A stretch of DNA of 64,000 nt, taken from Amoebophrya sp. A120. Lineage: Eukaryota > Protista > Dinoflagellata. Of this stretch, positions 3,524 to 63,590 are shown one piece after another (the stretch's first letter is position 1; each line of letters opens with the position of its first letter). The notes under the pieces are model-generated. The model made no database searches. It was not told the DNA's origin and saw nothing but the letters and a program-made list of their open reading frames with translations. A program made the position numbers and the translations under genes. Where the stretch lies: NCBI GenBank assembly GCA_905178155.1, contig CAJINV010000005.1:3403716-3467715 (forward strand). Reading direction: 5' to 3'.

Positions 3524-6500
3524 TCATTTTCCCTCGCAGATTTGGTACGAATACCAAATGAAATCTTCCCCATTGATGCTTTTCGTGACGTCAATTGTGC
3601 ATTGCAAAAGTATGTTCGCACAGCTACCAAGTACGAATTGCATGAATGATAATTTCATAATCTTTCCATCTCAATTCATTCACTCACTCACGCAAGCTAT
3701 TATCCTTCTTGAAGAGTTCTTTCATCGGTTTCCCATCGTTCTCTCTCGGATGTGCTTACAAGTGTATCGCTTTGCTAAGAATCTTCGCACGCATCAGCGC
3801 GCGGCGTAGGTCCCGTCACTCATCTTTTGGAACCAGATGCCGCACACTCGGTATTCTGTCCGCCCCGAATTCTCACAGAAATCTTCGGCGTCGATTTGGA
3901 ACGTCACGGGATCGGGATCGGCGTCGCTTTTTTCGGTTTGCCAGGCGCTGCCTGTGGTGTTGGGAACTCTTTCCCAGCGCCTGCCGCTGATATTCGCTAC
4001 GAATTCCGCTTGTTTTTGCTCGGCCTCCTCCTTTTGTTTCCGGATGTTTTCGTTTTGTCGCGCGGTCCTTGCCTTGCACGCCTTGGTCTTTCCCCTCCTG
4101 TCGGCCTTTTGCTGTTTCGGTAGCGGCTTCGTGGGCCTCTTTGCTACGAGGTGCGCCTTCACCACGTGGGCCGCTGGCTGTGGCTTTAAGTCCATGAACC
4201 CGTCGACCGGAAGGCCTATGGCGTCGAAGTCCTCTTTTACCATTCTGCCCCAGGGGGTGTTTTTTCGGATCTCTTGCTTCGTCAGGTGGTGGCATGCTTC
4301 GTTGGGGTTGCGAAAGGTGTGCGCCGCCCACGCTACCCGCCTCTCCCGCAAGATGGTCTCTATCGGCGGCACGCCCGTCCTGTTGCAGAGGTCGAGCCGG
4401 CTTGCGTACTCTTCTGCTCCTTCCGCTTCCTCTTGTGCGTACTGCCATGCGCGTTTTTCCCCTTCCACCGTTTTCAGGGTGCTGTGCTGGAACCACCGCA
4501 AAGCCTTGAGGTCGTGTTCCCGTGGGTGCCAGGTTTCCGCGTTGTATAAAGCGACGGAGTTGGCAAGGCTTTGGTATAGAGTCGCTTTCATCCTCCTGGA
4601 GATGTCTCGGTCTCTCCAGATGCCCTTCAGTGCCTGGACCGTGGAACGCGCCATGCCGGTGCGCCTCGCGATCTCCTTCGTTGTCGCCGCGTTGTTTTCT
4701 ACTTGCGTGCCCAGGTATTTGAACAAGCTGACGGTCTTGATTTCTTCCCCGCTGTAGGTGGTTAGGTTTGCTGGGACGAGCTGCCGCGCGCGCTCTGCTT
4801 TCTGTTTCTCCAGTATCTGTCGCCCTACCCGGAGTTGTCGCTCTTCCTCTTCTGTCTTCGCTGGTCGGCAGAAGCCCGTCGCTTTGTGGTAGGTCAGTGC
4901 TTTTTGGTCGCTCAGGATGTCGCCGCATCTGTCGCAGACAAATGCGTTCTTCTCTTGCTTCACGAACCGAATGCGGCCCATGCGTATGAGCCTTGCCGGC
5001 GTTTCGGCCCATCGCCACCGCACTGTTGCCCACCCGCTTTTCTTCAGGATGCAGCAGTTGAAGGACCCATCATCCCACGCAAGTAGGTGCGTGGGCTTCA
5101 ACCCCATGTCCATCCGTGGCGCCTTTTTCGCTCCCTGTTTCAGCTCTGGGCGCAGGTCCGCCCCACTCCACTCGACCATCCACCCGCTGCGCTCTGTGCC
5201 GCCAAGTTCCTGGAACTTGAATCGCTCTTCTCGTGCTTCTTCGTTCGTTTTTTCGGCCGGCTGCAGGTTGAACGTCATGGCCTCGGTCTTTCCATCTCAA
5301 GGGAAGATGGGATCTATGTCTGTCATGCTCATGTAGCCCGCGGAAAAACTACATCAGATCTCCTGTCACGCCCGAACGCAATTTCATGTTTGTACAAGTG
5401 CGATACAACTTTAGCGAAGGATATCACTGAGACCGTCGCAATTCGGCCCGTCCGGCGCTCCAGGGGCGTTTAGGTCCAACGGATTTTCTGTGATGTTCCC
5501 GTTGACCGCCCCCGCCGCTTTCACGTAGCACCACTTTTTCGTGCACCAGTCTGGACGGTCCTGTGGGTCCGCGCACCGGTAATTCGCACCGGCTTTGCCG
5601 TTTTTTCCGTCAGATGCCGTCTATCCTCTGCAAAGGCAATATCGTACCTCCTTGTAGTATATTGTTCATCGAATTTTTAGTGCAGTTATTTACATACATA
5701 GTATCTGCATCTTTGCGAACTTGAATCAACATAATTAATACAAATCTCACTCTTCAATTTCATCTTGCCAAAATTTCTTGTCATGCGCTCTCTACTAATA
5801 CGATACTTTTGCACTGCATACCACCGTCTCTGTGTCTTCCCAGGCCGCGCATATCCTGAGCAAAAACGCCTCCTCCCCAGAGCTGTCACGCAAATCTGCA
5901 TGCCTGAAATGCTTATCATGCACAGCCACGGCACGAGAGGCATTCTTTCATTTCTAACGCAATCCGGGAGCCCCAGCCTGTAATGTTAGAATCAGGATAA
6001 GCATATCGATTTCTCATCATGCGGATGCGCTAGGTAATAAACAGCAGTACGCTATCATGCGCAACAGCCAAAAGCGGTGGAAGTGTGAAGCAACGTCCTC
6101 ATCTTGACTCGGGGGTGGGGAAGTTTTTGGACGGGATAACGCAGAACTCTCCGTAATTCGGACCGCCGCCGTACTTCAGCGTGTAGGCCTTTCCGTAGTC
6201 CGTGTCGTCTTTTTGTGGTGTGTATCGCGAGAAAAAACTGTTTCAACACTGGAAAGTTGTGATGCAGAGGACGCAACTACTACACCGAAGTGCTTGTCTT
6301 GCTGCACATGCAAGACAATGCATTTATTTCAGGCGTGTTTCCCCGAGAAACAGAAAGCTCGCGTGGCAAATTTTTTTTTGTGCTGGTGTGATGCAAAGTA
6401 GCGCGCAAGATTCTTACAGTTGTGACGCAGTTTTTTCGTGCGATAGTGTAAGCCACTCTTGGGCAGGAAACTGCAGGTCACAGGAAGCCAAGTTGTATCC

Positions 6501-9001
6501 CGTCCACGTTGTGTCAGTGCCTGTGCCACATCCGTCTCGCATCAAATAGCACTTGCGTTTGCCGCTAGCGTCTGCATTGTTTTCCAAGAAGAAGGATTTG
6601 CATTCGTCCGTTTTCGAGCACAAGTACCGGCATTCGCTCAGCGTGTAGGCACGGTTATTGTAGGTGCTGATCACGATGGGATTCGTACCTCCCAGAAGCG
6701 ACGTGAAAGCGCCACCAGGCTGGCACTGACCGCCGTATCCGACTATCAAGTGCAAATATCAGGTCTGGGTGGTGTGGAAAATTGCAAAACCTGAGCAGGT
6801 GCTTCTTGTTTAACACGGCTATAGCGCGTCTGGTGTATCATGTTGCGGAAGAACAGTGAATGCCTACTGAATTAAGTGGAGTACGTATCTCATGCGCAAT
6901 ACGCAACACAGCCCTGGTTCCCCAAAAGATTTTCATGCTTGGAGGCCTATTGTTTCTTTGTCACCCGCGAGTCAGCATGGCAACTTTCCAGGCCATAGAT
7001 ACAGACATATTTGCAAAAAGGCATATCGACGGCGCAGTTACTGTCGTCGACCTGCGGCACATCTGTTGCCTCTATACAACTTGCCGTGTTTTGCTCCAAG
7101 CTATACATCATCTGCGTCGATTGGAGGTATCCAGGCGACTCGAGCGGACACAAATTGGACGGAAAATGGTGGACATTCCGAAACAAAAGCAGCGGACTTC
7201 GTCCGTCATTCATCCATGAGAAAGATGCTGAATTCTGATGGAGCTGGGATTCTCATACAGCCATGTCTTGTGGTGCTTTGTGCTCCTGCTGCGCCTGCAC
7301 ACAAAACCGTAATCGAAAGAGCACCGAGCACGGCCCCACCACAGGCAAATAGAGTGGCAGATTTGGCCGCAACTGGGTGTTGCGGAAACCATGGCCGGGC
7401 CGCGCCAGGAAAAGCCAACAGCGGCGCGAAGACTTTGGCGCGCCAGGGCAGCGGGCTGGCACGCGCGCGCCGCCCCCGTGTCGTGCGGCGGGCGGCGAGC
7501 AAAAAAATTGTGTCCGACCTTTGGCGCGCATTGTGTCCGGTTTTTGGCGAATTGTGTCCCAAGGCAAGTGTGTCCGAGCAAAAAGCACACTGAAAATATG
7601 CACGGCATCTTTTACCTGGCGTGCGGCCGGGGCGCCGCCCACTGGGGTGGTCCGGCTGGAAAGGTTGCTGCTGGCAGTCGGAGACGCCACAGGCGCCGCC
7701 ACTTCCGTGGGCTTTCTCACACAAATGAAAGAATGGGAGGCGCTTCGCAGATTGGCACCACACCCAGGCGGCAGGGCGCGGACTGCCGCGTGGCATGTCC
7801 TCCCTTCAGGTGAATTGCTTTCTTTCCGTCGGTTCTCAGCCATCGGCCCCACTGCTTCTCTTCGCCCTCTACTATTCACAGAAGCTGAAAGCGCAACTAA
7901 CGCAGTCCTATGGCAGCTCGAGTGCTTCTGCATTGTGGCAATGCGATGAGGAAGCTGACAAAAAAAAAACATTCTCAGCGCTCAGGCGAAGGTGCTAGAG
8001 ATTCGGAAAAAGATGAATTTTGATTGTAATTGTGCACGTTTTTCTGCCCCGTTTTGTGTCCGCTATACGGCCTGGCGCCATCCATACGATTTCAACATTC
8101 CCATTCGTGTCGTCCAAGTACACCCGATTCGGACAGACGGCAGTGTAAAATTGGCACGTCCCACTTCTGTATGGATTGCAAATACAATGTCAGGTGTCTG
8201 ATACGGGCAGGATGCAACTTGACGTCATCCTAAGTCTGCTGACGTAGACAAAAATCCGCCGGCCTTGCTCAGTCGAAAGACACTCTGGGGTTCTTGCCTC
8301 TCACAGCTGTGGCATCTCTCATGCAGGCTACACATTGAGAGGCCTCCACGGGCACGGATCTTGTCATGACATGCTCATACTCTGAGCATGAATTCCACAA
8401 CTTCTTTCTTGCAGGTCGAAAAATTATACAAATTTCTGCATTAGCATTCTTCCTGACCCAGACATAATCGAACTCTATTTGCACTTGATACTGTGTCGGA
8501 CTGGTAGGCTTTGCACATGCCGTTAGATTCCGTACGGCACTGCAGGTCACAGCGCCGCCAGAAGAAATTTTTAGAGGCGTCGAAATAATATTCCAATTGT
8601 GGGTTGACGTTGACCTTGAAGACTTCGTCTCCTGTCAGTCCACCAGACCCATTATACTGAGAATTGCACTTGCCGCTGAACTCCTTCGCGCAGATGGGGT
8701 CTGTGAAAGTACTAGTACCGCCGGCAGCCGACAGCGACAGATCGGTCCAGGTAGGTAGGATCGGAGCAGCGTCATCCATCGAATTAACACATGTGCACGT
8801 GTCCGCCTTCTTGCTGGCTTTGGTCTGGAGGTGATTTCGATTTGTGAATGCAGCTCCTCCATCTGTGTGGGCCTGGGTCTTTTGCTGCGCTGCACCTCGT
8901 CGCAGCACCTTCACGGCTTGCACCGCCGGGCACCTAGACACGACCTGGAGGGCCGCAAGAAGACGACCGGCAAAGGAGTAACGACGCACCTGCGCGCCCA
9001 T
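3524..9001 (-). CDS. Secreted Cys-rich protein with PAN/apple-like modules and a C-terminal WCYV Cys domain; multi-exon
   Basis: Signal-like N-terminus. Modules CDLQC...CKAYQ...CQFY and CRYLC...CKSFF...CYLM. Spliced C-terminus reads YGEFC(V/A)AWED...C...PDWCTKKWCYV...C...D..KS...WYSYQICEGK*. Six introner junctions give in-frame joins; the junction across about 7250-8070 is unresolved. Confidence 0.7.
3675..5286 (-). mobile_element. 5'-truncated non-LTR retrotransposon (RTE-like LINE) nested in an intron
   Basis: Flanked by a 14-bp direct repeat TCTTTCCATCTCAA (3661-3674 and 5287-5300). The 3' tail is a short tandem GAGTGAGTGAATGAA. The ORF carries RT C-terminal motifs. Confidence 0.85.
3794..5278 (-). 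CDS. C-terminal part of a LINE reverse-transcriptase ORF with a zinc finger
   Basis: (K)TEAM motif at the 5' edge; FKYLG...EIARRTGMA...LKGIWRDRDIS..MKATLY...LYNAETW is typical of the RTE-clade thumb region; C-x2-C-x12-H-x5-C. No YADD core, because it is truncated. Confidence 0.8.
   Translation of the reverse strand: MTFNLQPAEKTNEEAREERFKFQELGGTERSGWMVEWSGADLRPELKQGAKKAPRMDMGLKPTHLLAWDDGSFNCCILKKSGWATVRWRWAETPARLIRMGRIRFVKQEKNAFVCDRCGDILSDQKALTYHKATGFCRPAKTEEEERQLRVGRQILEKQKAERARQLVPANLTTYSGEEIKTVSLFKYLGTQVENNAATTKEIARRTGMARSTVQALKGIWRDRDISRRMKATLYQSLANSVALYNAETWHPREHDLKALRWFQHSTLKTVEGEKRAWQYAQEEAEGAEEYASRLDLCNRTGVPPIETILRERRVAWAAHTFRNPNEACHHLTKQEIRKNTPWGRMVKEDFDAIGLPVDGFMDLKPQPAAHVVKAHLVAKRPTKPLPKQQKADRRGKTKACKARTARQNENIRKQKEEAEQKQAEFVANISGRRWERVPNTTGSAWQTEKSDADPDPVTFQIDAEDFCENSGRTEYRVCGIWFQKMSDGTYAAR
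5622..5820. mobile_element. Introner family B
   Basis: TATCCTCTGCAAAGG...GATACTTTTGCACTGCATA; flanks CCGTC/CCACC; in-frame join ETVASDGK. Confidence 0.75.
5852..6138. mobile_element. Introner family C
   Basis: TATCCTGAGCAAAAACGCCTCCTCCCC...GGGGTGGGGAAGTTTTTGGACGGGATA; flanks GCGCA/ACGCA; join YGEFC(V/A)AWED. Confidence 0.75.
6223..6445. mobile_element. Introner, family D-like
   Basis: TATCGCGAGAAAAAACTG...CAGTTTTTTCGTGCGATA; flanks GTGTG/GTGTA; join EWLTPQKDD. Confidence 0.75.
6744..7025. mobile_element. Introner family A (degenerate)
   Basis: TATCAAGTGCAAATATCAGGTCTGGG...CAGACATATTTGCAAAAAGGCATA; flanks CCGAC/TCGAC; join NCAV(E/G)YGGQC. Confidence 0.75.
7300..8000. other. GC-rich non-coding island inside the secreted-protein gene
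   Basis: Abrupt rise in GC, TGTGTCC repeated four times at about 7508-7577, no recognisable protein. Boundaries approximate. Confidence 0.4.
8170..8490. mobile_element. Introner family A (degenerate)
   Basis: TATGGATTGCAAATAC...CCTGACCCAGACATA...TTTGCACTTGATA. The direct repeat has decayed, but removal plus 5 nt gives CKAYQSDTGGTCQFY. Confidence 0.65.
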
Positions 9002-9631
9002 GATCCTTTTTTCACCCCACTACAATCAACATCGCGGACATTTTGAGGTTTATTCCAGCCTCGTGCATCTGAGTTGCAGCAGAGCCAAGAGGAGGATAGC
9101 AGAAGGGCAACAATGCATAACAACTTCTGGACTCCAAGCAGCTCGGGAAAGATCTGCAAGTCCGATAGAGGCAACAGATTTCTAAAATTCTTTATCGTCC
9201 GACGCCTCCGCGTCACACTCTCAATTTTCTCATAGTTGTGGCACTCGTGGTCAGCAGTTCATTTCTTCCAAACATTTGACTCTGCTCAGAATTGATGAAT
9301 GGTCACTCGCAACACAAGTGCGCTCATTTTCTTTTGCTGACAGACAAGATCTTTAAGAAACATCACGAAAGCCAGACCTACACCTACTGGGAGGTGGGTG
9401 TGGGAGTGAGTGTGGAACTACCTCCCCCTACATTCAATAATTTAAATTTTAGTCGCACAAAAGTTCTCGTTGCAATCCTGCGAAAGGGATCATGAACGTG
9501 ATATTATCATGGAAATAACTGCAATGGCGAAGAGGATTCCGACTCGAGGCCCGGAGCACTAAAACATTACGAGCAAGTTGTTCTTCAATATCTTTGATCT
9601 TTCTGCTTGTGGGCCAGGGCCACGTGACTGA

Positions 9632-12600
9632 TCAATAAGGCATGAATCCAGGTGGCGGATGAGGTGCCGGGCCCCCACTTCCGCCGGGAAACATGTTGTA
9701 GCCATACGGCAACGGCGCACCTGTTGACGAGTACTGCTGGTATTGTTGATTCTCATTCTGATTTATTGCCCCCGCCCGCGGCGCACTGTGTACTACTAGG
9801 TTCGTCCCCTGCTGATAGTGCTGGGGATGATTCGCGTGGTTCGCGTATTGCGGTGTCGTTTGTGTCTGAAAGTCCGGGGTATCGAAGCGGTTGAAGGTCG
9901 CGTTGTTGTGCGCCGGCGCCGTTGTTGTCCCAGCAGGCCCCAGCCCGACGTGAAAGGGGTTTACATTCGTGTTGCTCGCACTGTTGCTGTAAAGCATGTT
10001 TGACGTCGTACTTGCCCCCCCGGCCACCCCCGGCGGCCCTGCACTCGAGGACGACGAACCACCGCCAGGAGCTTGATATTGAAATTGTTGCTGTTGCTGT
10101 TGTGGTTGTCCGCCTGCTGCTCCTCCGCTTCCTGTTGGGACAAAAGAACTCGCAGCACCCGGATTGGCGTTCCACAAGGGTCCGCTGTTCAGCCGTGCGT
10201 TTTGTTCCTCGTGCGCCTCCCTTCTCTTCTCCAGCTCCTTCTCCCGTGCCTCCTCCTCCTTCGCCTTTTTTGCCTCCCGCTTCTTCGCAATCGCCCTTTG
10301 CACGTACGCGTCGTGTTCGCACGCCCTGAATTCCTTGTCCCACTTTTCCTTCATCTTGTGGTAGTGCTCCTGCCCGATGTTTTTGTGCAGCCAGGTCTTC
10401 ACGTAGGCCCCGGGAAGTTCGATGTTCTTCCGTCCCATGTACTCCAGGATCCGCAGACCGACCGGCTTCAATAGCCTCGACATTTCGGACTCGTCGCTGT
10501 CGTACTCGTCGTCCTTTTTCTTCGCGAAGGCCGCACTGCTCGCGCCGGAGCGCTTCCCCCCGCGGCCCTTGCCCTTCTGCGTTATTTGTTCCCGGTCTTT
10601 TTCCTCATGTCTGCGCTGGTTGATTTTGTCCTGCAGTTTTGATTGATCTGTGCCTTTCGGGTCCTGCTTCCGGTGCATGTTTTTTTCCTTCAAAAAGGCG
10701 ATGTATTTCTCCTCTTCCGCGGGCTTGGTAAGTTGCAACGCCTCCCACAGCGGATTTACCAACACCAGTCCCGTTTCTTGCTCCCGCCTCTTCTGGTGCT
10801 TTGTTTTGAACTCTTCCGACCGGTAGCTGGAGATCAAAGCCTGCGTCTCCCCCGTGCTTGTTTCCCCGAAAATAGCTTCTTGCTCGAAAAGCTCGTACGC
10901 CCGGTCGAAGAACCACTGCAGGGTTGGGTGCGTGCGGAGGAGCTCGTGGCACTTCGCGCCGCGCTATCAAGTGTAAAAGTGTCTGGGTCTGGAAGGATGT
11001 GAACTTGTGATGCGCATTTCATAACACAGACAAATCTCTCATGCATCTTTGCAAAAGGTGCCCATATGTTGTCCCCAAAATGGGGGATTTGTCATGCGGA
11101 TTAAGCAATGCGGAAGCTTCTCGAAATCTGTGATGCTAGGGCTTCCATGACAGACATTTTGTGTCATGCAAAAACAGCATGACAAAAATCTGCATTCTTC
11201 CAGACCCAGACATCTTTACATTTGATACGCGCACGCCGTGGGGAAACTTCTCCACCGGCTTCGCGAATTCCTCCTTCAGGTTGTCTCTCGTCACGCACTG
11301 CTTGTAGTAGTTTTTCAGAATCTCCAAAATTTCGTCGTCCGGAATCAAATCCTGCCGGCAATCCACCCATTTCATAAACTCGCCGTCGGGCTTCAAAGGC
11401 TTGATCGCGTGCAGATGCGCTGTGTGCGGGTGGGGTAACGCCTGGGCCTTCACCTCCCGAGAGGCAATGGCGCTCTGCTCTTTCTTCTCGTGCTGTTTTC
11501 GCACGATCTCGGAGAACGTGTCTTGATTTGGCTGCTCGGGGGACGAGCTCGCGCCGGTAGAATTTTTCGGGTTCCTCGCTTGTTGTTGATTTTGATGGCT
11601 TACTGTTCCGGTTGGTACTTGATTAGGATTTTTTGGATTTCCCCTGTCTTTGCTGTTATTTTTCCCTTGATGTTCCTCTTGAGCAGCTGCACGCATCTCC
11701 CTTCGCCTTGCTCTCTTCTGCGCCTTTGTAAGACGCTTTCCCTTCATCTGGCTTGCGTTCATTTCGGCAAGATTATCCACTTGCTGTTGCTTCGTTCCCC
11801 CACCATTAGTTGTACTTTGTGCAGCTGCCTCACCTGAAGATGCTCCGCTCCCGAACGCGTTGTAGATACCCGCGCCGTGAGGTCGTTGTACTTGCTGTTG
11901 CTGCTTGTTTTGTTCTTGCCCGCCCCCCCGAGCAGTAGTAGATGATGTTGCACCAGGTCGTTTATTCATGCGTTTTTTATTTCCATCTCGAGCAAGGTGT
12001 GCAACGGCGTCGTCGTCACTATCATCCTCGTCCCCGAGCAATGCAACTTGGTCGGCCAGTTCGAATTGGTTCTTTCCTAGGTTCGCATCCATTTCGTCCT
12101 CCGACGAATTCGAATTATTGCTGTCATCATCTTGACCATCTTGCTCCCCGTCGCCATCAGCAGCTCTCCTTATCGCAGCCGCGTCCGTCCAACTCTTCCC
12201 CATTGCAGCTAGTGTCTCTCCCTCTTTCCTAAAAGCGGCACTGCTACCAGCACCACGACCACTCTTCTTCTTGATACTATCTCCCTCGAACAACGATCCC
12301 TGCCCCGCTTTGAAAGAGGAGCCGAGAGCTCTCTCTTCTTCCAATAGTTCGTTTTTCATCTGCTCTCTTTCCCGGAACCAGTCGGATTTTTCCTGCTTCC
12401 CCCGTCTTTCCCTTTTCAGCTGCAGCAACGTCTGCTCTTCCATGGTGGAGATTCCCTGTTTGCACTGGATCATCATCGTGTCTAGGTCATCCGTCCGCCC
12501 AATGCCCATGCCCACGTAATCCAGCTCATTCGGGTACTTCGCCTTGTACTCCTGCAAGTCTTCCAGTACTTGCGCCCGTACCCGCGCCGCGCCCTCGTGC

Positions 12601-14225: not shown

Positions 14226-15104
14226 TGGGACAGGTTTCTAAATATTTCTGGTTGCGTGGAGGCGGGTCGGGAAACAAGACAAAGACTACAACATACAATG
14301 AGTAGAAATCAAACGGTTGGATGTGAAGCGAAGGGGTGGTACGTAAATTCAAAAAAACAAAAAATCTTTCTAAAAACAAAAGCGAACTTTCGAAAATTCA
14401 AACCCTGATGCGAGAAAGGCAATAAATCGGCGACCTAGATGAAGAAGTCTTCGAAGACATCAACATATAAATCTAGCGTATAAAAGATAAAGAGGCACCG
14501 GGGGAGACTTGCGACATAGGGATCAACTTCTCGACCAATTATACGACAAGTTGCATTAATTGCGTGACGGTGAAGGAACTGAGTTAGTACTATTGCCACG
14601 CTCGATCCAGAACCACGAGCTGGAGATAGCGTCGCAAGGACGATGATCTGTCTCAGTTGGTAGATCGGTTGAACACCAGATCGAGTAGCCGTGCGGGAGC
14701 AATAGCGCTCTTGGTGCAGCATCACACAAAATCGTTCGTGTGTGTGCTCTTCGTGAAGGACTTGAAAATTCCAATCTGATAAATATAAGCAATAAATTAG
14801 TTAAAACTTCTTGTCCTCTACTGGGTCAGAGAAGTTGTTGCGTTGCGTTTAGTGTACTCGGAAACCTCCAGTTCTTTGGCCTCAAACAACATCTTGGATG
14901 CGTGGGTGCAGCTGGTGGTGCACGTGGGTCGCACATCATCGCAAATAATCAGATAATTTCATTTCAAACTTCAGCGGCAAATAATGGACATTTTTATGGT
15001 GACACTTTTTCGACGAGGAAAGGCATTTATTTCGTGTTTTTTTACCAAGTGTTGAAATGAAACTATTGAATCTGCCGCCGACGTCCTGTCGCACGCCCAC
15101 CTGC

Positions 15105-30300: not shown

Positions 30301-30490
30301 ACGCGGAGGATGATTTACTTGTCGGGCTAGCACAGCCGGTCCCGGTTTGGTCGGAAGGTCGGTTTTCATCTTTTGCAGGGGAGGAAAACGTCGACGAGTG
30401 TTGGTTGGCGATCTCCTGTTCGTGATAGAACGCCAGATCATTTGCGCCGATGGCCACCACCCGGCCGTCATGCGTGAAAGAAGTTGCCAT
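27344..30490 (-). CDS. Multi-pass membrane hypothetical protein, 3 exons
   Basis: The 430-aa, 476-aa and 62-aa ORFs join in frame via GT-AG introns at 29088-29249 (MDLGRLIFFRIGYMSQQ) and about 27627-27743. Several hydrophobic segments. Confidence 0.7.
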
Positions 30491-53302: not shown

Positions 53303-53942
53303 CTTTTTTGCGTTGGCAGCTGAAAAATCAAAAACTTGTTCGTATATACTTGTGACAAAAGGAGCCGAGTGTTCTCAAGCTTCTCCCGTAGCTAGTGCAA
53401 GAACATATAATTTGTAGTGGTGCACTGTACTGGTGGGCGTGGGCCTGTTGCCTGTTGGTGTAGTTAGCACCTGGCAATAACAAGCATCGTGTTTACGGCA
53501 GCCCATTCTTTTCCCTGGGGAGACATCACTACACGACGACCTTCGACAATACCGAGCGACAGCGAGGTGAATCGAGGAGTGCGACAATTTCAGTACGAGG
53601 TCAAGCAGCAATCCATGATGTTGCGGCGTTCCTCATAAGTAGAAGTACGTCTTCTTGCATCAACTACAAGATGTACGGGTGCGATGAAACTTCTACAACA
53701 ATGCGGCCGATGTGTTTATTCTTTCCCCTCGTGGTAGCACTCGATATTAATAACACACTCTGTTTTCACTCATTGAAGATTCTTATTCGACTATAGAGAC
53801 GACAAACAAGCTGAGAGAAAATATCTAGAAGAACTCACTACGCGCCCGCCTGCTCATTAGCCAGTCGTAGAATCGAATGTGGTAGAGGCACTACCACTAC
53901 AAGAGGAAGACTAAAAAACCAGCAGCCCACTACTGCTTTCAT

Positions 53943-54755
53943 TCATGTGGTTTTCTTTTCGTTTCTGACTGTGGTGTTTGTACTGTCTACAACTCCACTC
54001 GCAGCCGCATCAACATCTTCGTCCGTATATGCATCAGTGTTTTCCGCAAAGCCGCTCTCCTTCAGATTTTGTGTCGTTCTCGACGGCAATTCCCCGTCGC
54101 TCATTTCGCCCGCGTCGGCCATCAAGTCTTCCACCTCCTCAAACATCCTCGCGTCGAACGCTTTTGCCCAGAGTTTTTGGATAGTTTTCAACTCCGTTTC
54201 CGTCAACCCCTTACTACCCGGCGAAACGTGCTGGACAAAGCGCTGGATCGCGGAGGGACGGAGGCTGCGCGGGTCCTCTTTGGGGAGTTGGGCGGACAAA
54301 GCGTCTGCGATGGTTTCCAAGTCGGGTTGGAGGAGCTTTGATGTTGTAGTTGTTCTGGAGAACGGGCGAGTTGAAGAAAAAAGCGGGGACGAAGATGAGG
54401 CTGACAATGAGGTTCTGCAGCTGCTGCTGTTGGACCATGGACATGCTCTTCCCGTGGCGAAACTAGAACGTTGCGCCCCCGTAGCAGCATGCGAATGAGA
54501 AGTCGACGTTGCACGGTGGATCAGCGGACGATACAACGAAGACGAGGAGCAACTCCTCGTCCTTAACATCACCGCAGCATGTACTATACCGCTGGGTTTT
54601 ATTGTTCTGCCGCGAAACGCTGGCCGCGCGATCAGTGGTGGCATAGGCAGCGAGCAAAGCGAGGGCATCTCTTGTCTTTTATCTTTATGGCTCAGCTCCA
54701 ACCACGACGGTGTGTGACGATTATAACACGTGGCGCTAAGAGAAGAACGCTGCAA
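53943..54755 (-). CDS. Hypothetical protein, possibly mitochondrial
   Basis: 270-aa ORF with an S/R-rich N-terminal part and a small helical acidic domain. The true start is probably further downstream. Confidence 0.5.
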   Translation of the reverse strand: MQRSSLSATCYNRHTPSWLELSHKDKRQEMPSLCSLPMPPLIARPAFRGRTIKPSGIVHAAVMLRTRSCSSSSLYRPLIHRATSTSHSHAATGAQRSSFATGRACPWSNSSSCRTSLSASSSSPLFSSTRPFSRTTTTSKLLQPDLETIADALSAQLPKEDPRSLRPSAIQRFVQHVSPGSKGLTETELKTIQKLWAKAFDARMFEEVEDLMADAGEMSDGELPSRTTQNLKESGFAENTDAYTDEDVDAAASGVVDSTNTTVRNEKKTT

Positions 54756-54917
54756 CTACCTCGCGGCCAACGTAGTCCAGTAAAACAAAAAGACGGCACT
54801 TATCACTCTTAGCCGTTCTCATTTAGCCTGTATATATTGTCGTAGCACCGCAAAAAACATCAAGACAGGGGTCCATCACGATGAGCATCAAACTCGTTGA
54901 TTTATCTCAGGATTAGC

Positions 54918-55634
54918 TATCGCCGTGGAAAAACGCCGGCGCGATGCAGTGCAATACTGCAGTCACAGAGGCAAACGTAGCTTGTTTTTTTTTATATCTA
55001 CATGGTAGTTTAGAGGTCGTGACCGCAACACGTTGAAATCATCACGCAGCAATTATTTCCGCACGACTTTCTGTTCAGTCCCCATGGTCATCAATAGGCG
55101 ACAACTGTGAGTAGTCACGAAAATGGTGGGGCTCCACTTGCTCCGCTTGCTCCGGTGCGTATCGCCGTGAAGAAACGCCGGCGCGATGCAGTGCAATACC
55201 GCAGTTACAGAGGAGGCAAACGCAGCTTGTTTTTTTTTTCTACATGGTAGATTAGAGGTCATGACCGCAACGCGTTGAAATTATCACGCAGCAAGTAGTT
55301 CCGCACGACTTTCTTATTCTTGTTGACTGAAAAGAAAGTTTCTTTTCAGTCCCCATGGTCATTAATAGGCGACAACTGTGAGTAGTCACGAAAATGGTGG
55401 GGCTCCACTTGCTCCGCTTGCTCCGGTGCGTATCGCCGTGAAGAAACGCCGGCGCGATGCAGTGCAATACCGCAGTTACAGAGGAGGCAAACGCAGCTTG
55501 TTTTTTTTTTCTACATGGTAGATTAGAGGTCATGACCGCAACGCGTTGAAATTATCACGCAGCAAGTAGTTCCGCACGACTTTCTTATTCTTGTTAGTCC
55601 CCATGGTCATTAATAGGCGACAACTGTTACTAGT
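54918..55634. repeat. Tandem triplication (242/271-bp units) of the last exon and 3' flank of the neighbouring gene
   Basis: TATCGCCGTG..AAACGCCGGCGCGATGCAGTGCAATAC recurs at 54918, 55160 and 55431; the units encode EQVEPHHFRDYSQLSPI(N/D)DHGD*. Confidence 0.9.
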
Positions 55635-56749
55635 GGACTTTCTCAATAAAGGACTATTTGGCCGAAGTGATTTCTAAGTGTACTCCCGTCGTGTTTCGCT
55701 TCAAAAGCCGATTGGTATCTGGATTCTTTTCTGATTATTTTGGATGGCCATACGTAGACCGATGGCATTTTGATGCGTTCTGCAAGTTTCCGTCAGTCTT
55801 CTTTCCAGCATGCCAACCAGCTTAGACTAGACCCAAAACGAATGCACTTCGCGACAACGGCTCGGCGCAAAATCGCGCGTACGAATCAGCGAAATACAGG
55901 GCAAAGAACGAAAAGAGACGCCGCGCGATGAGATTCTTTGCGCGCCGTTTGCACTAGAGAAGAGCTGGGCCGTTTGCTACGTACTCTTGCTTTTGGAAAA
56001 TTTGCAAAAGCCCCAGCCCCCCCTGCGGCAGAAAGAGCAAAGTGGCTGCGTGCCCACGTAGTGCAGTCGTGTGGCAGCGCTTACTTACACGCTGGCACCA
56101 CGGTCGCAGCCATTTTGCTCTTTCCCCCGCGCACGGGAGCTGGAACTGTTGCGACCTTTTTTCTCGGGTTTGCGACCTTTTTTTTCTCGGGTTTGCGACC
56201 TTTTTTCTTCAGTTTGCGAGGTTTTTTCTTCAGTGTGCGACCTTTTTTGCTATTTTCGACACAAAAAAGCGCCACAGAATGGCTTCCAGGTGGGAAGCGC
56301 CGGGGGCACCGGCGAGGCAGCGCGCGGCGCATCCACAAGCTCCGACGGCCGCCCGCAAAGGCGCGCGGCGCACCTTCCACGCTGCGCACGCCTTTTGTTT
56401 TTTGGCTAGTTTCGCGAGTTTTTTCGTGCCCCGGCTCTTTTTTTTTACAGTTTTTGTATGTCCCGGCGGCATTTTTCCCTGCTTTGCGCGGCCAAACAGG
56501 ACGCCGCTTGTCTTTTTTTTCCCTTGAAGCAGGTCCCAATAATCTTGCCCGCCGGAACGTACACGCACCGCGCCGATACGCCCCAACTTGTTTTGCTTCC
56601 GCGAGATTTTCCTTTCCGCTGGAGCCCTCTTCCGGCCCACTTTCCCGTGGTTCTGCGTCGGCCACGAGTCCGGAAAAAGACTTAGGGATTACTTCGGTTT
56701 TACTTAGGATTCACTTAGGCCAACACTTAGGTTTATCGAGAAAAACCAA
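55635..56749. mobile_element. Non-autonomous DNA-transposon-like insertion, about 1.1 kb
   Basis: Imperfect TIR GGACTTTCTCAATAAA / TTTATCGAGAAAAACC, TAGT on both sides, subterminal ACTTAGG repeats, internal TGCGACCTTTTT repeats. It interrupts a sequence that is contiguous in the adjacent tandem copies. Confidence 0.6.
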
Positions 56750-56751
56750 TA

Positions 56752-59700
56752 GTCCCGAAAATGGTGGGGCTCCACTTGCTATCAAATGTAAAAATGTCTG
56801 GGTCTGGAAGAGTCATGCTGTTTTTGCATGACACAGAAGGTCTGGCATGGAAGCTCTAGCATCACAGGTTTCGAGAAGCTTCCGCAATGCCGAATCCGCA
56901 TGACAAATCCCCCATTTTGGTGACAGAAAGTAGGCAGCGTTTGCTACCTATGCATGAGAGATTTTTCTGTGTTCTGAAATACGCATCACAAGTTTGTATT
57001 CTTCCAGACCCAGACATATTTGCAATCCATACTTGCTCCCGATAAACTTGCTCTCCCTCATTTTCTGCCCCACCGCCCACACCTCCCGTCCCGTCTGGCG
57101 ATAACTCGAGACTCTGACTGCTGTTCCCGTAACTCAAAAACTGGTTGCGCTTGTACCGGGCGGAGCGCTTGCTACTGTTAATGGTGTTGTAGCCTCCACG
57201 GGGAGTTACCTGGTGATACATTGAGATTTTTCTAAGGTCATGAGCTTGCCGTGAGAACAGGTTGCGATTCGAGAAAAATTGCAGAAGCAGGAGGTCGAGG
57301 TCGTGTGCGTGTGGTGAATAAAAGCAGTCCTGGTCTAGATTTTTTTGTATGACAAGTCAGCAGTCGAATTGTTCAAACGGACCAGGAAATAAAGAAGTAT
57401 AGATCAACAAATACGTATCTCGGCGTGAACAGGCTGTTGTTGAAGACGGAGGACGGCGTCAAAACGGTATCGGTTCTGCTCGTGTTAAGCATGTTGTTTC
57501 CATCCACCCCGGAAGATGATGAAGACACCGGTGCTCCTGAAAACGAACTCGGCTCAAATTGCAGTTGAGATTGTGGCCCAAGAGCGCCAGCTGCACCAGG
57601 AGGTCCTGCTACTACACTAGGAAGAGTTGTAGAAGAGGTGGTTGCAGTTGTTAACACAGCTGATGTGCCTATGCCATAATTATTGCCATAACTTCCCGCT
57701 TGTCCAGCACTGCCCGTAGCAGTCTGCCACGGCGTCGGCCGATTGTACCGGTCCCGGTAGTTTGGGTCGCCGAAGCTGGTCGACAAAAAAGACGCACTCA
57801 GTAGCGAATGTGCTTGCGCGTACATGGAATCGGGCGCCGCGGGCGATTGGGGTATGGAGGATGGAGGCAAATTCTCCACACTGTTACGCAGGAAAGAGGA
57901 CTGCTCTAGAGGGGTATCGGAGAGAAAGCTTGTTGTAGTTGTTCCCTGCTGCGGTGCCTGTGCAGCTCCTGCTCCGAATGATGTTGGTGGTCCTACAGGT
58001 GGTTGCTGGGACATCGCTCCTGCTGGTGCATTGGCTGTCGATCCTCCGACCAAAAAAGACCCGGCGTTTGATGCAGTTGCTCCACCCGATGATGAAGTCG
58101 TGTGTGACAGATAGGGCGCAAACTGGGTGGCAGGAGAAGCGGCCAGTGGGGTAGTGGTAGTAGGAACAAGGCGTTGTTGGTTGTGGGCACCTGGTGAGGA
58201 ACAAGCCGCTGCTGAACCTGGCCCAGCAAAAGGGTTTTTTGTAGGTTTGCTCGAGCTAGAGGACGAGACACTTGAACTACTTGTCCCGCCGTACATTACG
58301 TCCAGCTTCGGGGAGTGGCTCAATCTCACTTGGTGATACGAACCAAGATCAGACTGGGTGCAGTTATCCAACATTCGACTTTGATTCGACTGCTGTCCGC
58401 CCCTCACCGGTGGCAACGCTCCGACAACCGTTGAAGATCGCGAATGATTTATTGCAGCGGGAGGAGCCCTTAACGGTCTATTTGCATTCGCCGATAGAGA
58501 GGCACTAGGCAGTGTTTCCGCAAGTGGGGTAGGAATTGGCCTCAGCCCGTTTTTATCGTCCACCCGCACTCCATGGCTCAGGTAGCTCATCGTACCAATG
58601 TCAAGCTCAGGTCGGGAGGTTGCAGCCGCGAGGTTGTCCTCCACAGTGGTACTGGGCACGTCTCCCGCTCCTGCAGCAGCTGGGGTTGCTTTTCTGGGCC
58701 GCTGCAGCTCTGGTTTTATTCCGTCGGACAATCTCGGTTCATCGGGAATTGCAGCCAGACGAGGAGCACTGACACTGTAAGTGGCTCCGCCTTGTTCATG
58801 TTGGGTAGCGACTATGCCCTTTGACACCGACCGGGAATTATGATGATCACCGCCAAAATTATAACCGGAATCTGGTGACGCGGCGGAGGGTGGCGAGCTG
58901 GAACAGGACGAAGCACTGGCTGATGAGGACGAGGATTTCGAAATCGTGTGGTCGCTCAAAGTTGGTCTCAACTCCAAAGCGGTCGTGGAGAGTGTACGGC
59001 CAAAACCAGCGAAGCTGCCTTCTACTGTTTGTACCCCTGCTGCGGATTGCGCCGAGGGTCCGCACGACACGGAGTGGGAGTTGTAGTACCCGTTCCCATC
59101 TCCTGGCGCCCCCGCCTCCCGCACAGGACCCCACAGTCCCGACGAACTACAGCTCGACGCCGCTGATGAAGATCCGACACAAGAACTCGAAAACAAACCA
59201 TCCGGCGGACTGGCTGGCGTTTCATTAGTGTGCGCCCCCTCTTTCAACGGGGAACTTTTTTCCTTTTTCTTCTTTCCACCGATTTGGAAAAGGTCCATAC
59301 CAAACTTCTTTTTCTTCTTTTCGCTCGTACTAGTGCCTTCGATAAAATCTACGGCGTCGTCCAGCGGGCCGGAATGCAGGTCCGGTGATTGCGAGGAACT
59401 ACTGACAGACGACTTTTTCTTGTCCTTTTTCTTCTTCTTCGATGAGCTGGTCGGAGAGGCCGTGCTGTCGCGGGCAGTAGTTCCTTCAGCAAAATTTTCT
59501 GCTCCAGCCTCAGTGGAGGTCGCCGACTTAGTATTTCCAACCTGCGGGGTCGAGGTCGTATCCACATGGAGGTCCCGTGACGCTGAGGCAGGCGTTGCGC
59601 TTGCGTCCGCATCGACGGAGTTGTCAGCTCCTGTGGTGGCTTGAGCTTGTTTGTTGGACGTCTTTTTGCCTTGGAAGACGCTGCTGAGAAAGTTGTTCAT

Positions 59701-62700
59701 CTTGCTTTTGCTCTGCGGAGCACCAGCGGATGGTGCACCAGAAGCTGCTTGTTCCTGCTCTGTTCGTTCCTGTGTATCATGATCAGCTCGAACTACAGTC
59801 TCTGCAATAGAAGTATCTTTCTGTCGTGGGGTCACTGATTGTGTTTTTGCCCGTTCTTTTGAAGACGTGGCGCTGCGGTTCGTCATGATCAAGTTCAGAC
59901 GACCGGCGAGACTCGTGGGTTGCGCCGCTGCACTTGCTCCAGGCGGGACAGAACAAGTTCCAGCTGCACCTGCTTCCTCCTGCTCCTGCTCTTGATGTGA
60001 CTTTGGCTTTGCTTCTTCCAGCACAGCAGCTTTTGCTTTTTCCGGGGTAGTGCTATCAGCAGCTCTAGCTGTCTTCTTTCCACCCCTTGATAGCATATTG
60101 GAGAACAAATTCCGCTTCGAACTACTCTCGCTGCGGGCCTGCTCCTGCTTCTCCTTCTCTGCACTTTGAGTTCTTGGTTCGGTCGTTGACTGCTCTGTTT
60201 GATCTGCACTCTTCTGGTCGTTCGCGAATTGCTGCTGCTGCAGCTCTGCTGGTGCAGTATGCATTGCAAAAGTATCGTACTAGTATAAATCGCATGACAA
60301 ATTTCCTCAGCATGTGTAATGCAGATTTACCTTTAGAAAAAGGATTTGTAATGCGTGATTGCAATACGAGTACGATACTTTTGCACTGGATATGCAGCGC
60401 CAGTCAGCAAAACCGCTTCCTCCTCTACTTCCAGCACCACCGGACTATTGTTCTTACTGGATTCTCGCGACGGCTTTCGGAACCACGATTCTGACGGCGT
60501 AGCATCGTCCTGGTCTGTCAAGCCCCCTCTCGCCGACGCCGACGCGGAATTAGTTCCGGCGTTAGCTGCACCTGTACCTCCGCCCGCCGGTAGCTTCATT
60601 TTGTTCTATCCACAGAGAAAAACTCAACATCCCCATCCATTTTTCGCATGACAAGCACGGGACTTGATGCGTGACGTTTTGCATGACAAATTGGAAGGAT
60701 GGGGATGGGTGTTTTTTCCTGGATATGTTCCCCGCCCGTTGCATCATGTTGCCCATGCGGGAGAGGAGGGATCTTTTCCTACTCGCTTCCGAACCCGCGA
60801 TGCTCGCTGTGCCGTCGTCTTCGTTGAGATCTAGTGGAATCATGTTGTCAGCAACGTCGGACGGGCGGCGACTAGGCGTTGGAGACACTGTAGGTCAAAG
60901 GGTATTTAATTCTTTATGGGAGCGTCGCTATTTCTGTCAAACAGAGCGACACAACAAGAACTGCTTCTAGTATAAGAGATTCGTATTAACAAAACTACAC
61001 TGCGTCGCACGACGCCTTTCATGCTAGGCAAAATTCCTTTTGAGCAGGTACACGTCGAGTCACGGTCAAGCATCGTCTATTATCAAGAGTACCTTCTTGA
61101 AGGTTCTTGTCCTTTGTCGACATCGCTTTCGTCAAATTAGTTTTCATCTTGGAGAAAGCCGTTCCCATTTTTGTCGCGGCTGTTTGCTTTTTCGAACTGG
61201 AGCTCATAGTCTCTTTCTTGTGGTCTTCCTCTTCTGCTGCTGGCACGACCTCCAATGTTGCTGGTAATATTTCGTCTTCACCCGTGGTTCTTTGCATTTG
61301 CTGCTCCACCACCGCAAAAACATCATTTTCCAGCACTCTTTTGTCCTCCGGCGCACCATCGTCCTCTCCTAAGTCGATTTCGTCAACTTTGCTAGAGGGT
61401 GCGGCAAGTAGAACTGCAGCTCCTGTAGTTGTGCTGGTCGTGGTGCTGTTGATGCCAAGCGTCACATCATCTGGTTTTATTGCGACGATTTCTGTTCTTG
61501 ATGGAAGATGACCGGCATGATAATTCTTGTTCGGATCTTCATGCTGATTTATTCTTGCGTCGCCTTCGACATTATTATCAACCACTTCCTCGTACTCCGA
61601 GAAGTACGGCATGCGATTGGTAATCGTCTCGTGTAGCTGACCAGATGAAGAAGCTCTATGGTCATCGGGGTGAACATCGAGCTGCTGTGCAACTAAATCG
61701 TTCTCCGCATCAAACGCGGTCTCGTAGTCGTACTCAGCCGGAGTCCTGCGACGTCGGGGGTGATCATCTTCAATTTCTTTTTCGTGTAGTTGATCTCCGC
61801 CATCATGAACCTGAACATAATTCTCATTCGACGCCGGGGGCATTTGCAGGGTCTGCTCCTCTGACGTTCGCAAACCCTTCTCAGGACTCGCGATATTGAA
61901 CATTTCCGGTCCGGTGGTCGCGTTTTTTCCATTGGCTGCAAGAACTTCTACGTGAGGTTCTTGTGATACCTCTTGTCTTACAGTTACACCCTCACGACCC
62001 GCAAGAACAATCGCAGGCTCGGGTGCTCCCGAGACAACCGGCTCCTGATGCTGTGCCGTGCTTGCGGTTTGCTGCTTCATTTCTTCAGGGGAGTCGTGGT
62101 TATAATTTTCTTGTCGTGCTGCAAATTCGAATTCGTTCTGATCCTGCTCCGGCGGGGGTGGTGGTCTCAGTTGTACCTCTGTACTATTTTGCTTCGGATT
62201 ATACATCATCATCCCAGCAGCGGCCGGCACAGCGCCGTAATTCCTCTTCCCCGCAGCCCGGTAACTTGGCGTATCGAATGCAAAAATGTCTGGGTCTGGA
62301 AGATTGCTGAGGTTTGTGATGCTATATCTGCTTGACACAGAAGGCGTGCCATGCAAGGCCTAGCATCACAGGTTTTGAGACGGTTTCCCAATGCCTAATC
62401 CGCATGACAAACACGTTCTTTCGGCGACAGGAAAAGGAGGTCCTTTTACTGTCCAAGCATGACAGAACTTTGTGTGATCTAAGTATGCATCACAAGTTCG
62501 CATCCTTCCAGACCCAGACACTTTTGCATTCGATATGGCGTGATGCTCACCGATCGACTCCTCGCCTCCAGCAAGTCCAATCCTATGCAAAAACGTCCCC
62601 GCCCCCCTAGTGAAGATGGGGAATCGGCTAGAAAAATCCACAAGCTTTGGCTGTTTTGCATCACAAGTTTGGAGGACTCGTAGTGTACCACTGCTGTTTG

Positions 62701-63590
62701 AGGTAGTTCAGGAGCATCACAGATCTAGTATATCATGCTGCTTGGAGCATGACAGATTCCAGAAAACGACTAGAAAATGCTTTTCGTTTTCATGGGGCTC
62801 CGCATGACAAACCTTTTCAGCATGATGCAGATTTGCATTGCAACTATGGGAGGGGACGTTTTCAAATACGATAAGTCCACCACCTTTTTCATCTGCGTCA
62901 TCCCCTCGCGTAAAACCGTCCTTTGGGCCTGATGCCCTTCGAGGAGCAACCGGAACCGGTGCGCCGACTCGCTTCTCTCCCGGCTCTGCCCGCGCTTCAG
63001 CAACTCCTGCATGAACTTGGATCTCTGTTGCTTGTCGTCCGAGGTAGCAGTTGTGGGCGTTGTCGCGGAGGTGCTGGAGGTACGCGGTCGGGTTGTACTT
63101 CGCATTTGCTGCCCTCCTCCGCTTTGGTTGTTATTTCTCGTATTTCCAGCTAGTACAGCTGTTGGGCTTGCTGCAGTGCGGCCGGCGGGGGACTGGAACT
63201 GGTAGGGATTATTTGACGTGTCGTGGTGGTCATCAGCACTAGTATAAGGAGCGAAATTACCGTGTCTTTCACTAGTTGCGACGGACGGAAACATATTCAC
63301 TTCGACCAGTTTCTGCACCGTCAAAAATCGCTGTCGGTGCCGCGCAAACTCCTGCTGTTGCTGTTGCACGAAGATCTTCTGCGTCTCGACCTGCACATAA
63401 TTTTGAAAAGCTGCTCGCTCACTCGCGAGCGCCTGCTCCCGTTGCTGGAGGTCGTGGAAGTGTTGCTGGTGGGTGTGTTCTACCGCGGTATTCAAAGTTT
63501 GGCTTTTCTCAGTCACGCTGCTACGGGCGGCATCTAGCTCGCCTTCAAGCTGCGTCACCAGCGAAAGAAGTTCCTGCTCGCGGGCGCGAT
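56752..63590 (-). CDS. Very large low-complexity/coiled-coil hypothetical protein; 5' exon(s) not found
   Basis: The 262, 445, 108, 88 and 963-aa ORFs join in frame through four introners and a GT-AG intron at 60888-61092. A fifth introner follows the 119-aa ORF. The junction near 57230-57420 is approximate. Confidence 0.7.
56780..57031. mobile_element. Introner family A
   Basis: Family A TIRs; perfect direct repeat CTTGC; join YREQVEPHHFRDY. Confidence 0.9.
60258..60392. mobile_element. Introner family B
   Basis: Family B TIRs; perfect direct repeat TGCAG; join TGAAPAELQ. Confidence 0.9.
60607..60725. mobile_element. Introner family D
   Basis: TATCCACAGAGAAAAACTCAACATCCCCATCC...GGATGGGGATGGGTGTTTTTTCCTGGATA; perfect direct repeat TGTTC; join AGNKMKLP. 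Confidence 0.88.
62272..62535. mobile_element. Introner family A
   Basis: Family A TIRs; perfect direct repeat TGGCG; join VSITPSYRA. Confidence 0.9.
62579..62873. mobile_element. Introner family C
   Basis: AATCCTATGCAAAAACGTCCCCGCCCCC...GGGAGGGGACGTTTTCAAATACGATA; perfect direct repeat AGTCC; join KVVDLLEAR. Confidence 0.85.

Follow-up and report, generated by a model that had tools for sequence, protein, structure and literature searches.

Transposon-like introners in an Amoebophrya sp. A120 contig are removed from RNA together with five flanking bases, consistent with one fixed 1 + 4 cut register

Introduction

The genome of the dinoflagellate Amoebophrya sp. A120 carries introners, which Farhat et al. 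(2021, PMC7789003) described as having inverted repeats of 8–20 nt that start with TAT and continue with an A stretch, as well as direct repeats of 3–5 nt (a 5-bp example is given in their Fig. S19). These introners are supported by RNA-seq and resemble miniature inverted-repeat transposable elements (MITEs). Farhat et al. could give them no clear splice signature, and described repeats of varying length and borders that vary or are unknown (PMC7789003); according to published work more than 60% of the introns in these parasites have no splice signature. Gozashti et al. (2025, PMC12130899) list the A120 families as DNA elements with terminal inverted repeats (TIRs), of unknown superfamily and 150–350 bp long, with mostly non-canonical annotated sites and, in one family, integrase-like open reading frames between the TIRs. 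In the 22 of their 118 Amoebophrya rows that we compared, target-site duplications (TSDs) measure 2–5 bp or are absent, co-opt and carry models are mixed and there is no common register (PMC12130899), and a review still gives variable TSDs of 3–5 nt (PMC11282704). Here we analyse 64,000 nucleotides of A120 contig CAJINV010000005.1 (positions 3,403,716 to 3,467,715; the window), in which such elements interrupt one gene after another.

Outside Amoebophrya, the nonconventional introns of Euglena follow the code N3-CDG…CH'G-N5-6 (Nomura et al. 2025, PMC12501133). As in the window, where the fold is predicted, their ends are joined by a stem, their terminal dinucleotides are free, fixed spacers run from a paired triplet with the longer spacer on the 3′ side, and a MITE origin has been proposed (PMC12501133, PMC11282704). 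They differ in using CDG/CH'G with spacers of 3 and 5–6 rather than TAT/ATA with spacers of 1 and 4 (PMC12501133), in belonging to an unrelated lineage and in being reported as circles (PMC11282704); accordingly, the window elements follow N1-TAT…ATA-N4 and not the euglenid signature 5'-N3CDG…CH'GN5-6|R. The introns of Fritillaria borealis are likewise TIR/TSD transposon introns with non-GT-AG ends that stand beside conserved GT-AG introns, but they prefer AG-AC and AG-AT ends, whereas intron positions +1, −2 and −1 are unconstrained here (PMC11282704). Finally, the introners of Micromonas and Aureococcus are MITE-like and draw part of a splice site from their TSD, so that they are removed seamlessly; unlike the window elements they need GT/GC and AG, which limits target and orientation (PMC11282704).

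The window elements show the TAT start and A stretch, the short direct repeat and the non-GT-AG removal of A120-type introners, and they depart from the account of Farhat et al. (PMC7789003) in two respects: the duplication is 5 bp throughout, as proven by empty sites in a related genome, and the cut fits one transcript-oriented register, with one base taken before TAT and four after ATA (1 + 4), which places a donor-like T at intron position +2 and A at +3 (T+2/A+3). The class of element has been published before; a duplication of uniformly 5 bp, established from empty sites, appears to be unreported. The fixed, transcript-oriented 1 + 4 register also appears to be new, as we found no report of it in the open-access literature, subscription papers lying outside that search. 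A fixed code N·TAT…ATA·NNNN, with T+2/A+3 kept and +1, −2 and −1 free, would explain why annotated ends look random, would permit the re-annotation of tens of thousands of introns, and would account for the spread of the elements into any target, whichever way round they insert, at no cost to the protein.

Removal of the elements at the RNA level

We found 26 TAT…ATA inverted-repeat elements in the window, every one inside a minus-strand gene: 24 of 119–321 bp, one of 1828 bp (3596–5423) and one of 959 bp (7128–8086). Six of 11 listed sequencing runs were examined, one DNA-like (X1), four RNA-like (X3–X6) and one as raw reads (X9). Run X1 behaves as DNA, its contigs (5261–10990, 11200–23706 and 23862–24299) matching the window without differences through both elements and canonical introns, and the DNA contig depth through the elements equals that of the flanks (∼45), without joints. 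The contigs of X3–X6, which come from a single sample and in which minor forms are lost, omit the canonical GT-AG introns, and two of these runs show poly(T) ends; X3–X6 are therefore cDNA. Among the joints listed (15 of 142 in a first listing, with five at elements, five at canonical introns and five of repeat noise from the DNA run; 15 of 20 in a second, with nine at elements and six at canonical introns), the cDNA skips the element plus 5 nt at 14/14 element joints, and two further skips of this length (8170 and 3596) are deduced from where RNA pieces stop and from one loose end. Nineteen elements lie within the stretches compared with RNA, of which 10965, 31974 and 41110 have no listed joint; seven lie outside. 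Family A is removed whichever way it is inserted (34279 and 37913 in one orientation, 39799, 40361 and 35362 in the other). The elements are thus kept in DNA and removed at the RNA level with five extra bases. The preliminary description of this stretch had proposed just this excised length and had left open reversal in RNA or in DNA; the RNA alternative is the one that stands. The elements and the evidence on each are as follows (TSD copies are given left/right, with identity where imperfect).

3596–5423, minus strand, family A inflated by a LINE-like (long interspersed nuclear element) insert; TSD TCAAT/TCACT, 4/5; predicted intron 3592–5424; plus-strand start TGT, the 3′ variant ACA in transcript sense; junction deduced from RNA loose end 5424 to 3590
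3675–5300, minus strand, LINE-like insertion in this first element; 14-bp duplication 3661–3674/5287–5300; 500-aa stop-free frame 3797–5296
5622–5820, minus strand, family A; TSD CCGTC/CCACC, 3/5; RNA joint 5616>5821, skip 204 = 199 + 5; GT-AG register unused
5852–6138, minus strand, family C; TSD GCGCA/ACGCA, 4/5; RNA joint 5847>6140, skip 292 = 287 + 5
6223–6445, minus strand, element; TSD GTGTG/GTGTA, 4/5; RNA joint 6217>6446, skip 228 = 223 + 5
6744–7025, minus strand, family B; TSD CCGAC/TCGAC, 4/5; RNA joint 6739>7027, skip 287 = 282 + 5
7128–8086, minus strand, decayed 959-bp element, added here to the preliminary description; TSD GGAGG/CGATT, 2/5; RNA joint 7123>8088, skip 964 = 959 + 5
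8170–8490, minus strand, family B; TSD TTCTG/CTGTG, 3/5; skip 326 = 321 + 5 deduced from pieces (one RNA piece begins at 8492, the piece before it is the 78 nt 8088–8165)
10965–11227, minus strand, family B; perfect TSD CGCGC; from scan and frame, no RNA joint among those listed
23660–23938, minus strand, family C; TSD TGCGC/TGCAC, 4/5; RNA joint 23654>23939, skip 284 = 279 + 5
24008–24132, minus strand, element; TSD ATAGG/ACATG, 3/5; RNA joint 24001>24132, skip 130 = 125 + 5; gives the register's upper bound
31974–32179, minus strand, in an EngB-like GTPase gene; TSD GATCA, perfect; no RNA joint among those listed, RNA pieces ending at 31968
34279–34428, minus strand, family A; perfect TSD; RNA skip 155 = 150 + 5
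35362–35540, minus strand, family A; plus-strand start CAT (3′ variant ATG); perfect TSD; RNA skip 184 = 179 + 5
37913–38061, minus strand, family A; perfect TSD; RNA skip 154 = 149 + 5
38119–38375, minus strand, family B; perfect TSD; RNA skip 262 = 257 + 5
39799–39954, minus strand, family A; perfect TSD; RNA skip 161; empty in the relative (L073, gap 161)
40041–40305, minus strand, family B; perfect TSD; RNA skip 270; also in the relative
40361–40519, minus strand, family A; perfect TSD; RNA skip 164; empty in the relative (L073, gap 164)
41110–41255, minus strand, family A, in alpha/beta-hydrolase gene; TSD GAAAT/GAACT, perfect in the relative; no RNA joint among those listed
50565–50799, minus strand, own TIR type; perfect TSD CTTTT; from inverted-repeat scan
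51976–52240, minus strand, family B, in cyclophilin-like motif QGGDIVDGSG; perfect TSD; empty in the relative
56780–57031, minus strand, family B; perfect TSD; empty in the relative
60258–60392, minus strand, family A; perfect TSD; empty in the relative (gap 140)
60607–60725, minus strand, shortest element, 119 bp; perfect TSD; also in the relative
62272–62535, minus strand, family B; perfect TSD; empty in the relative (gap 269)
62579–62873, minus strand, family C; plus-strand start AAT (3′ variant ATT); perfect TSD; empty in the relative (gap 300)

Removal is exact even where the duplication has decayed, as had been claimed for 8170 (here deduced from pieces) and 24008. At 7128 the skip is exactly 964 nt despite a 2/5 repeat, so decay of the repeat leaves the excised length unchanged. 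As the RNA depth in two bins across 7128–8086 equals exon-only cover, no retained form is seen there. A hairpin flanked by direct repeats is a known substrate for template-switch artefacts of reverse transcriptase, and our data are cDNA contigs of one sample; it is nevertheless very improbable that the skips arose in this way, because they are exact with repeat identities of just 2/5 or 3/5 and across 964 nt, no retained form adds depth at 7128–8086, and retention would disrupt the frames of conserved genes. Excision from DNA before transcription, in the manner of internal eliminated sequences, is more improbable still. The TA-bounded inverted ends do recall the eliminated sequences of ciliates, and rare DNA forms would be dropped by contigs, but the DNA contigs cross the elements at flank depth with no joint, and the register described below follows the direction of the transcript and not the orientation of the element.

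Removing the element plus 5 nt restores stop-free minus-strand frames of 453, 1445, 415, 430, 816, 1091 and 1077 aa in 7/7 gene regions (elements 50565, 56780, 62272 and 62579 are left out of these frames), as the preliminary description had stated. Five alternative shifts all give shorter frames, one case being marginal (420 vs 430 aa), and the cyclophilin motif QGGDIVDGSG is restored at 5 nt only (shifts 0, 3, 4, 5 and 6 compared). A GT-AG reading, expected to be mostly unavailable, is possible in 1/26 elements (5622) when all six registers within the repeat are considered, and RNA excludes that register; in the RNA-supported register GT-AG ends occur in 0/26 elements, while the canonical introns of the window keep GT-AG in 12/12.

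The flanking 5 nt as a target-site duplication

The flanking direct repeat is perfect over 5 bp in 16/26 elements, matches 4/5 in six, 3/5 in three and 2/5 in one. Mean flank identity is 0.88 at length 5 against 0.21–0.35 at lengths 2–4 and 6–10, at which 0–3/26 elements have perfect repeats. Earlier, 24 elements had been counted, fifteen with perfect repeats and six with 4/5 matches, and three had been given one terminal change (on the plus strand, 3596 TGT, 35362 CAT and 62579 AAT); the elements, their termini and 5-bp repeats, the six and the three hold, and the totals become 26, including the 959-bp element, and 16.

For comparison we scanned one related assembly with a TIR pattern, which yielded 145 loci (0.6 Mb), three of them (L044, L045 and L073) orthologous to window 51640–63745 and 38719–42018 at ∼89–96% identity. 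Seven of ten comparable window elements are absent from the relative, where a single 5-mer is left, and 3/10 are shared. Five empty-site gaps (161, 164, 140, 269 and 300) equal the element plus 5, and two more sites are empty by local view. Since the relative's empty sites carry one 5-mer, the flanking 5 nt are shown to be a TSD made at insertion. The relative's own short paired elements, ascertained via one family's TIR, have a perfect 5-bp TSD in 135/155 cases, with 12 at 4/5 and eight at ≤3/5; other repeat lengths give 0–16 perfect. Relative-only insertions occur at at least three sites, at window positions 59234 and 54108 and ∼6 nt from 51976, and the insertion targets show no clear sequence preference. 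A depletion of T at TSD position 2 in the relative (3/72) has no counterpart in the window (5/26) and is not claimed. With a fixed-length TSD, presence/absence polymorphism (seven empty, three shared, at least three relative-only) and short, non-coding, multicopy inverted-repeat structure, the elements have the features of MITEs or non-autonomous TIR DNA transposons; one TIR pattern is estimated to occur in ∼440 stretches.

Three sites in one of these orthologous loci (L045) are of separate interest. At window 54108 the relative has an old element with a 2/5 duplication and the window is cleanly empty in the splice register, which may reflect a precise intron loss through spliced cDNA. At window 51970–51976 the same cyclophilin-like exon of the relative holds an element of another family, inserted independently at a distance of ∼6 nt from that of the window and with its own perfect 5-bp duplication. 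At window 60191 it has a relative-only insertion of ∼720 bp with another TIR type, whose transcript-sense start is TAG by eye, with T+2/A+3 kept; it is outside the 11 terminal variants considered below.

Termini and internal structure

A TAT…ATA-anchored inverted-repeat scan of the window recovered 22 elements, of which 18 outscore the best hit (11.5) from two block shuffles of the window. The scores of the other four (8170, 23660, 35362 and 39799) do not rise above shuffle noise, so that these elements depend on the RNA evidence, and the limits of 3596, 5622, 6744 and 7128 were set by eye or from RNA joints. In transcript sense all 26 elements start TAT[CG], most with an A run near position 11–14, and the TIRs are imperfect, with mismatches frequent at positions 4–8. 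The elements had been described as several dissimilar families; several there are, but they are not wholly dissimilar, having in common TAT[CG], the short A run and an internal motif, TGTSATGC/TGTAATGC, which occurs 63 times in the 5.2 kb of elements and 10 times in the remaining 54 kb. In the 24 short elements this motif, often as TTTGTCATGC, lies on both strands of otherwise unlike families. It may be a repeat bound by a common transposase, or an enhancer of splicing; a role as a signal for splicing in general is doubtful, as only 3/12 canonical introns contain it.

The cut register

Where a duplication has decayed, the RNA reveals which copy gave each base, and we define k as the number of bases kept from the left (plus-strand) copy. 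The permitted ranges are 0–2 at 5622, 1–5 at 5852, 0–4 at 6223, 1–5 at 6744, 1–3 at 7128, 1–2 at 8170, 0–3 at 3596, 0–3 at 23660 and 0–1 at 24008. The sole value common to these nine junctions, which come from at least three families, is k = 1; four junctions set the lower bound, and two besides 24008 set k ≤ 2. The data are consistent with one fixed 1 + 4 register in which the intron, in transcript sense, is N·TAT[CG]…[CG]ATA·NNNN. The fixed 5-nt offset proposed earlier is therefore right in length but not symmetric, as 1 nt is taken before TAT and 4 nt after ATA.

Independent observations support this register. When the relative's decayed element at 54108 is compared with the window's empty sequence, the two differ at a single base for k = 1 and at two or three bases for any other k, and at 41110 the changed TSD base sits in the copy predicted to be intronic. 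The 1 + 4 register predicts T as the second base, and T is second in each of the nine site classes that predominate in A120 (Table S4 of Farhat et al., PMC7789003). The family A copies 5622 and 3596, in opposite orientations, both rule out the mirror register, so the asymmetry of the cut tracks transcription and not the element.

It is improbable, though less so than template switching or DNA excision, that only the length is fixed and that the cut falls at more than one place in the duplication (1 + 4, 2 + 3 or family-specific). Two registers are left without junction 24008, independent uniform registers share a value by chance in 1.9% of trials (P = 0.019), which is not negligible, contigs hide minor forms, and the legend of Fig. 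3 in Farhat et al. calls the sites variable (PMC7789003). A length-only rule is opposed by the nine junctions intersecting at a single value, by the agreement of the relative's decayed element with that value and by the nine T-second site classes.

Possible mechanism of removal

We lean towards the view that these MITE-like introners are removed from RNA in the fixed 1 + 4 register by a relaxed form of the host spliceosome. A DDE (integrase-like) transposase encoded elsewhere would make 5-bp staggered insertions at any target. In the pre-mRNA the TIRs would pair into a hairpin with one unpaired 5′ base and four unpaired 3′ bases; the 5′ cut would be set by the donor-like T+2/A+3, N-T-A-(T/C) being read as a donor that does not need its first G, and the 3′ cut would be measured 4 nt past the paired ATA, in place of AG. 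The intron would comprise the last base of one duplication copy, the element and the first four bases of the other (D5 + element + d1–d4). The mRNA would regain exactly one target copy, and because of this every insertion would behave as a seamless intron in either orientation.

The spliceosome is favoured because the register aligns the intron 5′ end with the GTA donor of the host: canonical donors are GTA in 12/12 (next base T in seven, C in three and A in two), and T at +2, A at +3 and T/C at +4 of the elements match them. Among 11 terminal variants (three in the window, eight in the relative), nine affect the 3′ end, the other two are TAC at +4, and T+2 or A+3 is altered in 0/11 (P ≈ 0.012). 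Introns of strain A25 begin TT with repeats TTA-R-R, again giving T+2/A+3 (PMC7789003), and the spliceosomal splicing of TIR/TSD introns in Fritillaria provides a precedent (PMC11282704). Most elements have the predicted fold.(((…)))...., whereas 0/12 canonical introns fold end to end; the idea that the canonical introns are converted elements was rejected, as 0/12 end ATA-NN-AG or fold in this way. At 6744 an indel has shifted the inner stem and the terminal pairs are predicted to be open, yet excision is still exact, which suggests that measurement begins from the terminal triplets of the predicted structures. A bulge-helix-bulge intron has a 4-bp exon-intron helix between two 3-nt bulges, and this tRNA-type possibility was rejected because the flanking sequences are arbitrary and repeat each other directly, without being complementary.

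A number of points weigh against a spliceosomal mechanism or the register on which it builds. Positions +1, −2 and −1, which known spliceosomes constrain most strongly, are unconstrained here: G stands at +1 in 23/72 cases against a background of 28%, and GT-AG ends occur in 4/72. An in-length GT-AG register exists at 5622 and is ruled out by the RNA. There is no fixed branch A, since A−7 and A−5 both vary (an invariant A at −7, hinted at by the window, was ruled out by a GTA variant in locus L002 of the relative), and the stem would conceal +2 to +4. U1 was reported as undetected in these strains (PMC7789003). The upper bound k ≤ 1 comes from one junction (24008), without which one or two bases are possible; the orientation test leans on weak family alignments (5622 and 3596) and a loose end; three of the eight strand calls for the relative's variants are uncertain by codon score, two being then backed by long frames; the informative RNA comes from a single sample as contigs, and the genes of the window share a single strand. 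No autonomous copy or transposase was found in the window or in the 0.6 Mb of the relative's loci. Spliceosomal catalysis is proposed from sequence patterns, and we see its prospects as slightly better than even.

The same elements and register could instead be served by a spliceosome-independent, hairpin-measuring nuclease plus ligase that releases circles or linear RNA, the GTA-like start then being a coincidence of the transposon terminus. We regard this as possible but rather doubtful. It would account for the freedom at +1, −2 and −1, the disregard of the GT-AG option at 5622 and the lack of a branch consensus; its 3′-overhang hairpin geometry would resemble that of the Euglena code (PMC12501133), the euglenid introns are reported as circles (PMC11282704), and the reported failure to detect U1 (PMC7789003) also fits. 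A nuclease that measures a hairpin is harder to reconcile with tolerated terminal changes that are asymmetric and spare exactly T+2/A+3, with a 5′ variant, TAC, that is a host donor type, with the A25 terminus also giving T+2/A+3, and with terminal pairs that are mismatched (ACA, ATT) or predicted to be unpaired (6744) without loss of precision. A dedicated machinery, as put forward in the preliminary description, is unproven, and the alignment with the host's GTA donor speaks rather for the spliceosome. Tentatively, and with the same reserve, Amoebophrya-type cells might run a second, GT-AG-blind kind of splicing with a TAT/ATA-hairpin ruler (1 nt in, 4 out), distinct from the standard spliceosome and converged independently with that of euglenids; if so, it would reverse any 5-bp-duplicating transposon insertion in either orientation. 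The window elements supply exact substrates with which a spliceosome that does without G+1 and AG could be told apart from a separate enzyme that excises RNA, and either mechanism bears on how intron bursts come to be tolerated. A sequence-blind seamless intron is also a potential tool.

Mobility and the LINE-like insert

In agreement with the preliminary description, no transposase was detected in the window, with no Pfam match to one in 39 stop-free frames of ≥200 aa, shorter or split frames lying outside the scan; the Pfam matches in these frames are to GTPase, hydrolase, pyrophosphatase and SpoU methylase. Viral contigs contain nothing that matches the TIR pattern, and the 959-bp element at 7128–8086 has no Pfam match and no second copy in the window or the relative's loci. 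Of 16 long TAT…ATA pairs listed as candidates, one (L069, 6001–10208) was examined closely and rejected as an autonomous element, since two distinct elements on either side of a host gene happen to be paired there. The termini and the 5-bp stagger make mobilisation by an integrase-like DDE enzyme probable. The IS3EU/GingerRoot, Ginger2 and IS481EU transposons have TA..TA or TNT..AYA termini, integrase-like DDE enzymes and TSDs of 4–6 bp (PMC10045372). Their individual TSDs are 6 bp for IS3EU/GingerRoot, ∼4/15/25 for IS481EU and 4–5 bp for Ginger2 (PMC10045372), against 5 bp for the window elements; the window elements share the TA..TA termini of IS3EU/GingerRoot but not its 6-bp TSD, which is perfect in 0/26 window and 0/155 relative elements.

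The insert in the first element had been called a LINE. An insert with a 14-bp duplication is indeed present at 3675–5300, with a short tandem-repeat tail and inside an introner, but the label LINE is no more than a lead, there being no reverse-transcriptase Pfam match and a weak DUF6451 look-alike at 0.83. The 1.8-kb composite (3596–5423) appears still to be spliced out, which would make introners safe landing sites.

In run X9 (2026 RNA) none of the window's genes is matched at 90% likeness, and the run holds a near-identical family B terminus (window 11196–11227) with one dominant flank in 72–87 reads. The TIR seems to be better conserved across strains than the genes.

Other features of the window

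A GC content of ∼51% and the element signature both point to an A120-like Amoebophrya as the host. GC-rich stretches at 25100–26700, 45400–47500, 55800–56700 and 7250–7900 have no Pfam or Rfam match, the last lying within the 959-bp element, and no Rfam family matched anywhere in the window. By eye, tandem repeats at 54900–55650 comprise about three copies of a ∼250–300-bp unit, and a short AACCGAG-type array occupies the window end (63780–64000). An intronless DHH/DHHA2 (family II-type) pyrophosphatase is encoded at 20493–22214 on the minus strand; its named matches are bacterial, one relative at 85% identity aside. All examined genes lie on the minus strand, which fits the co-oriented gene clusters reported for Amoebophrya (PMC7789003).

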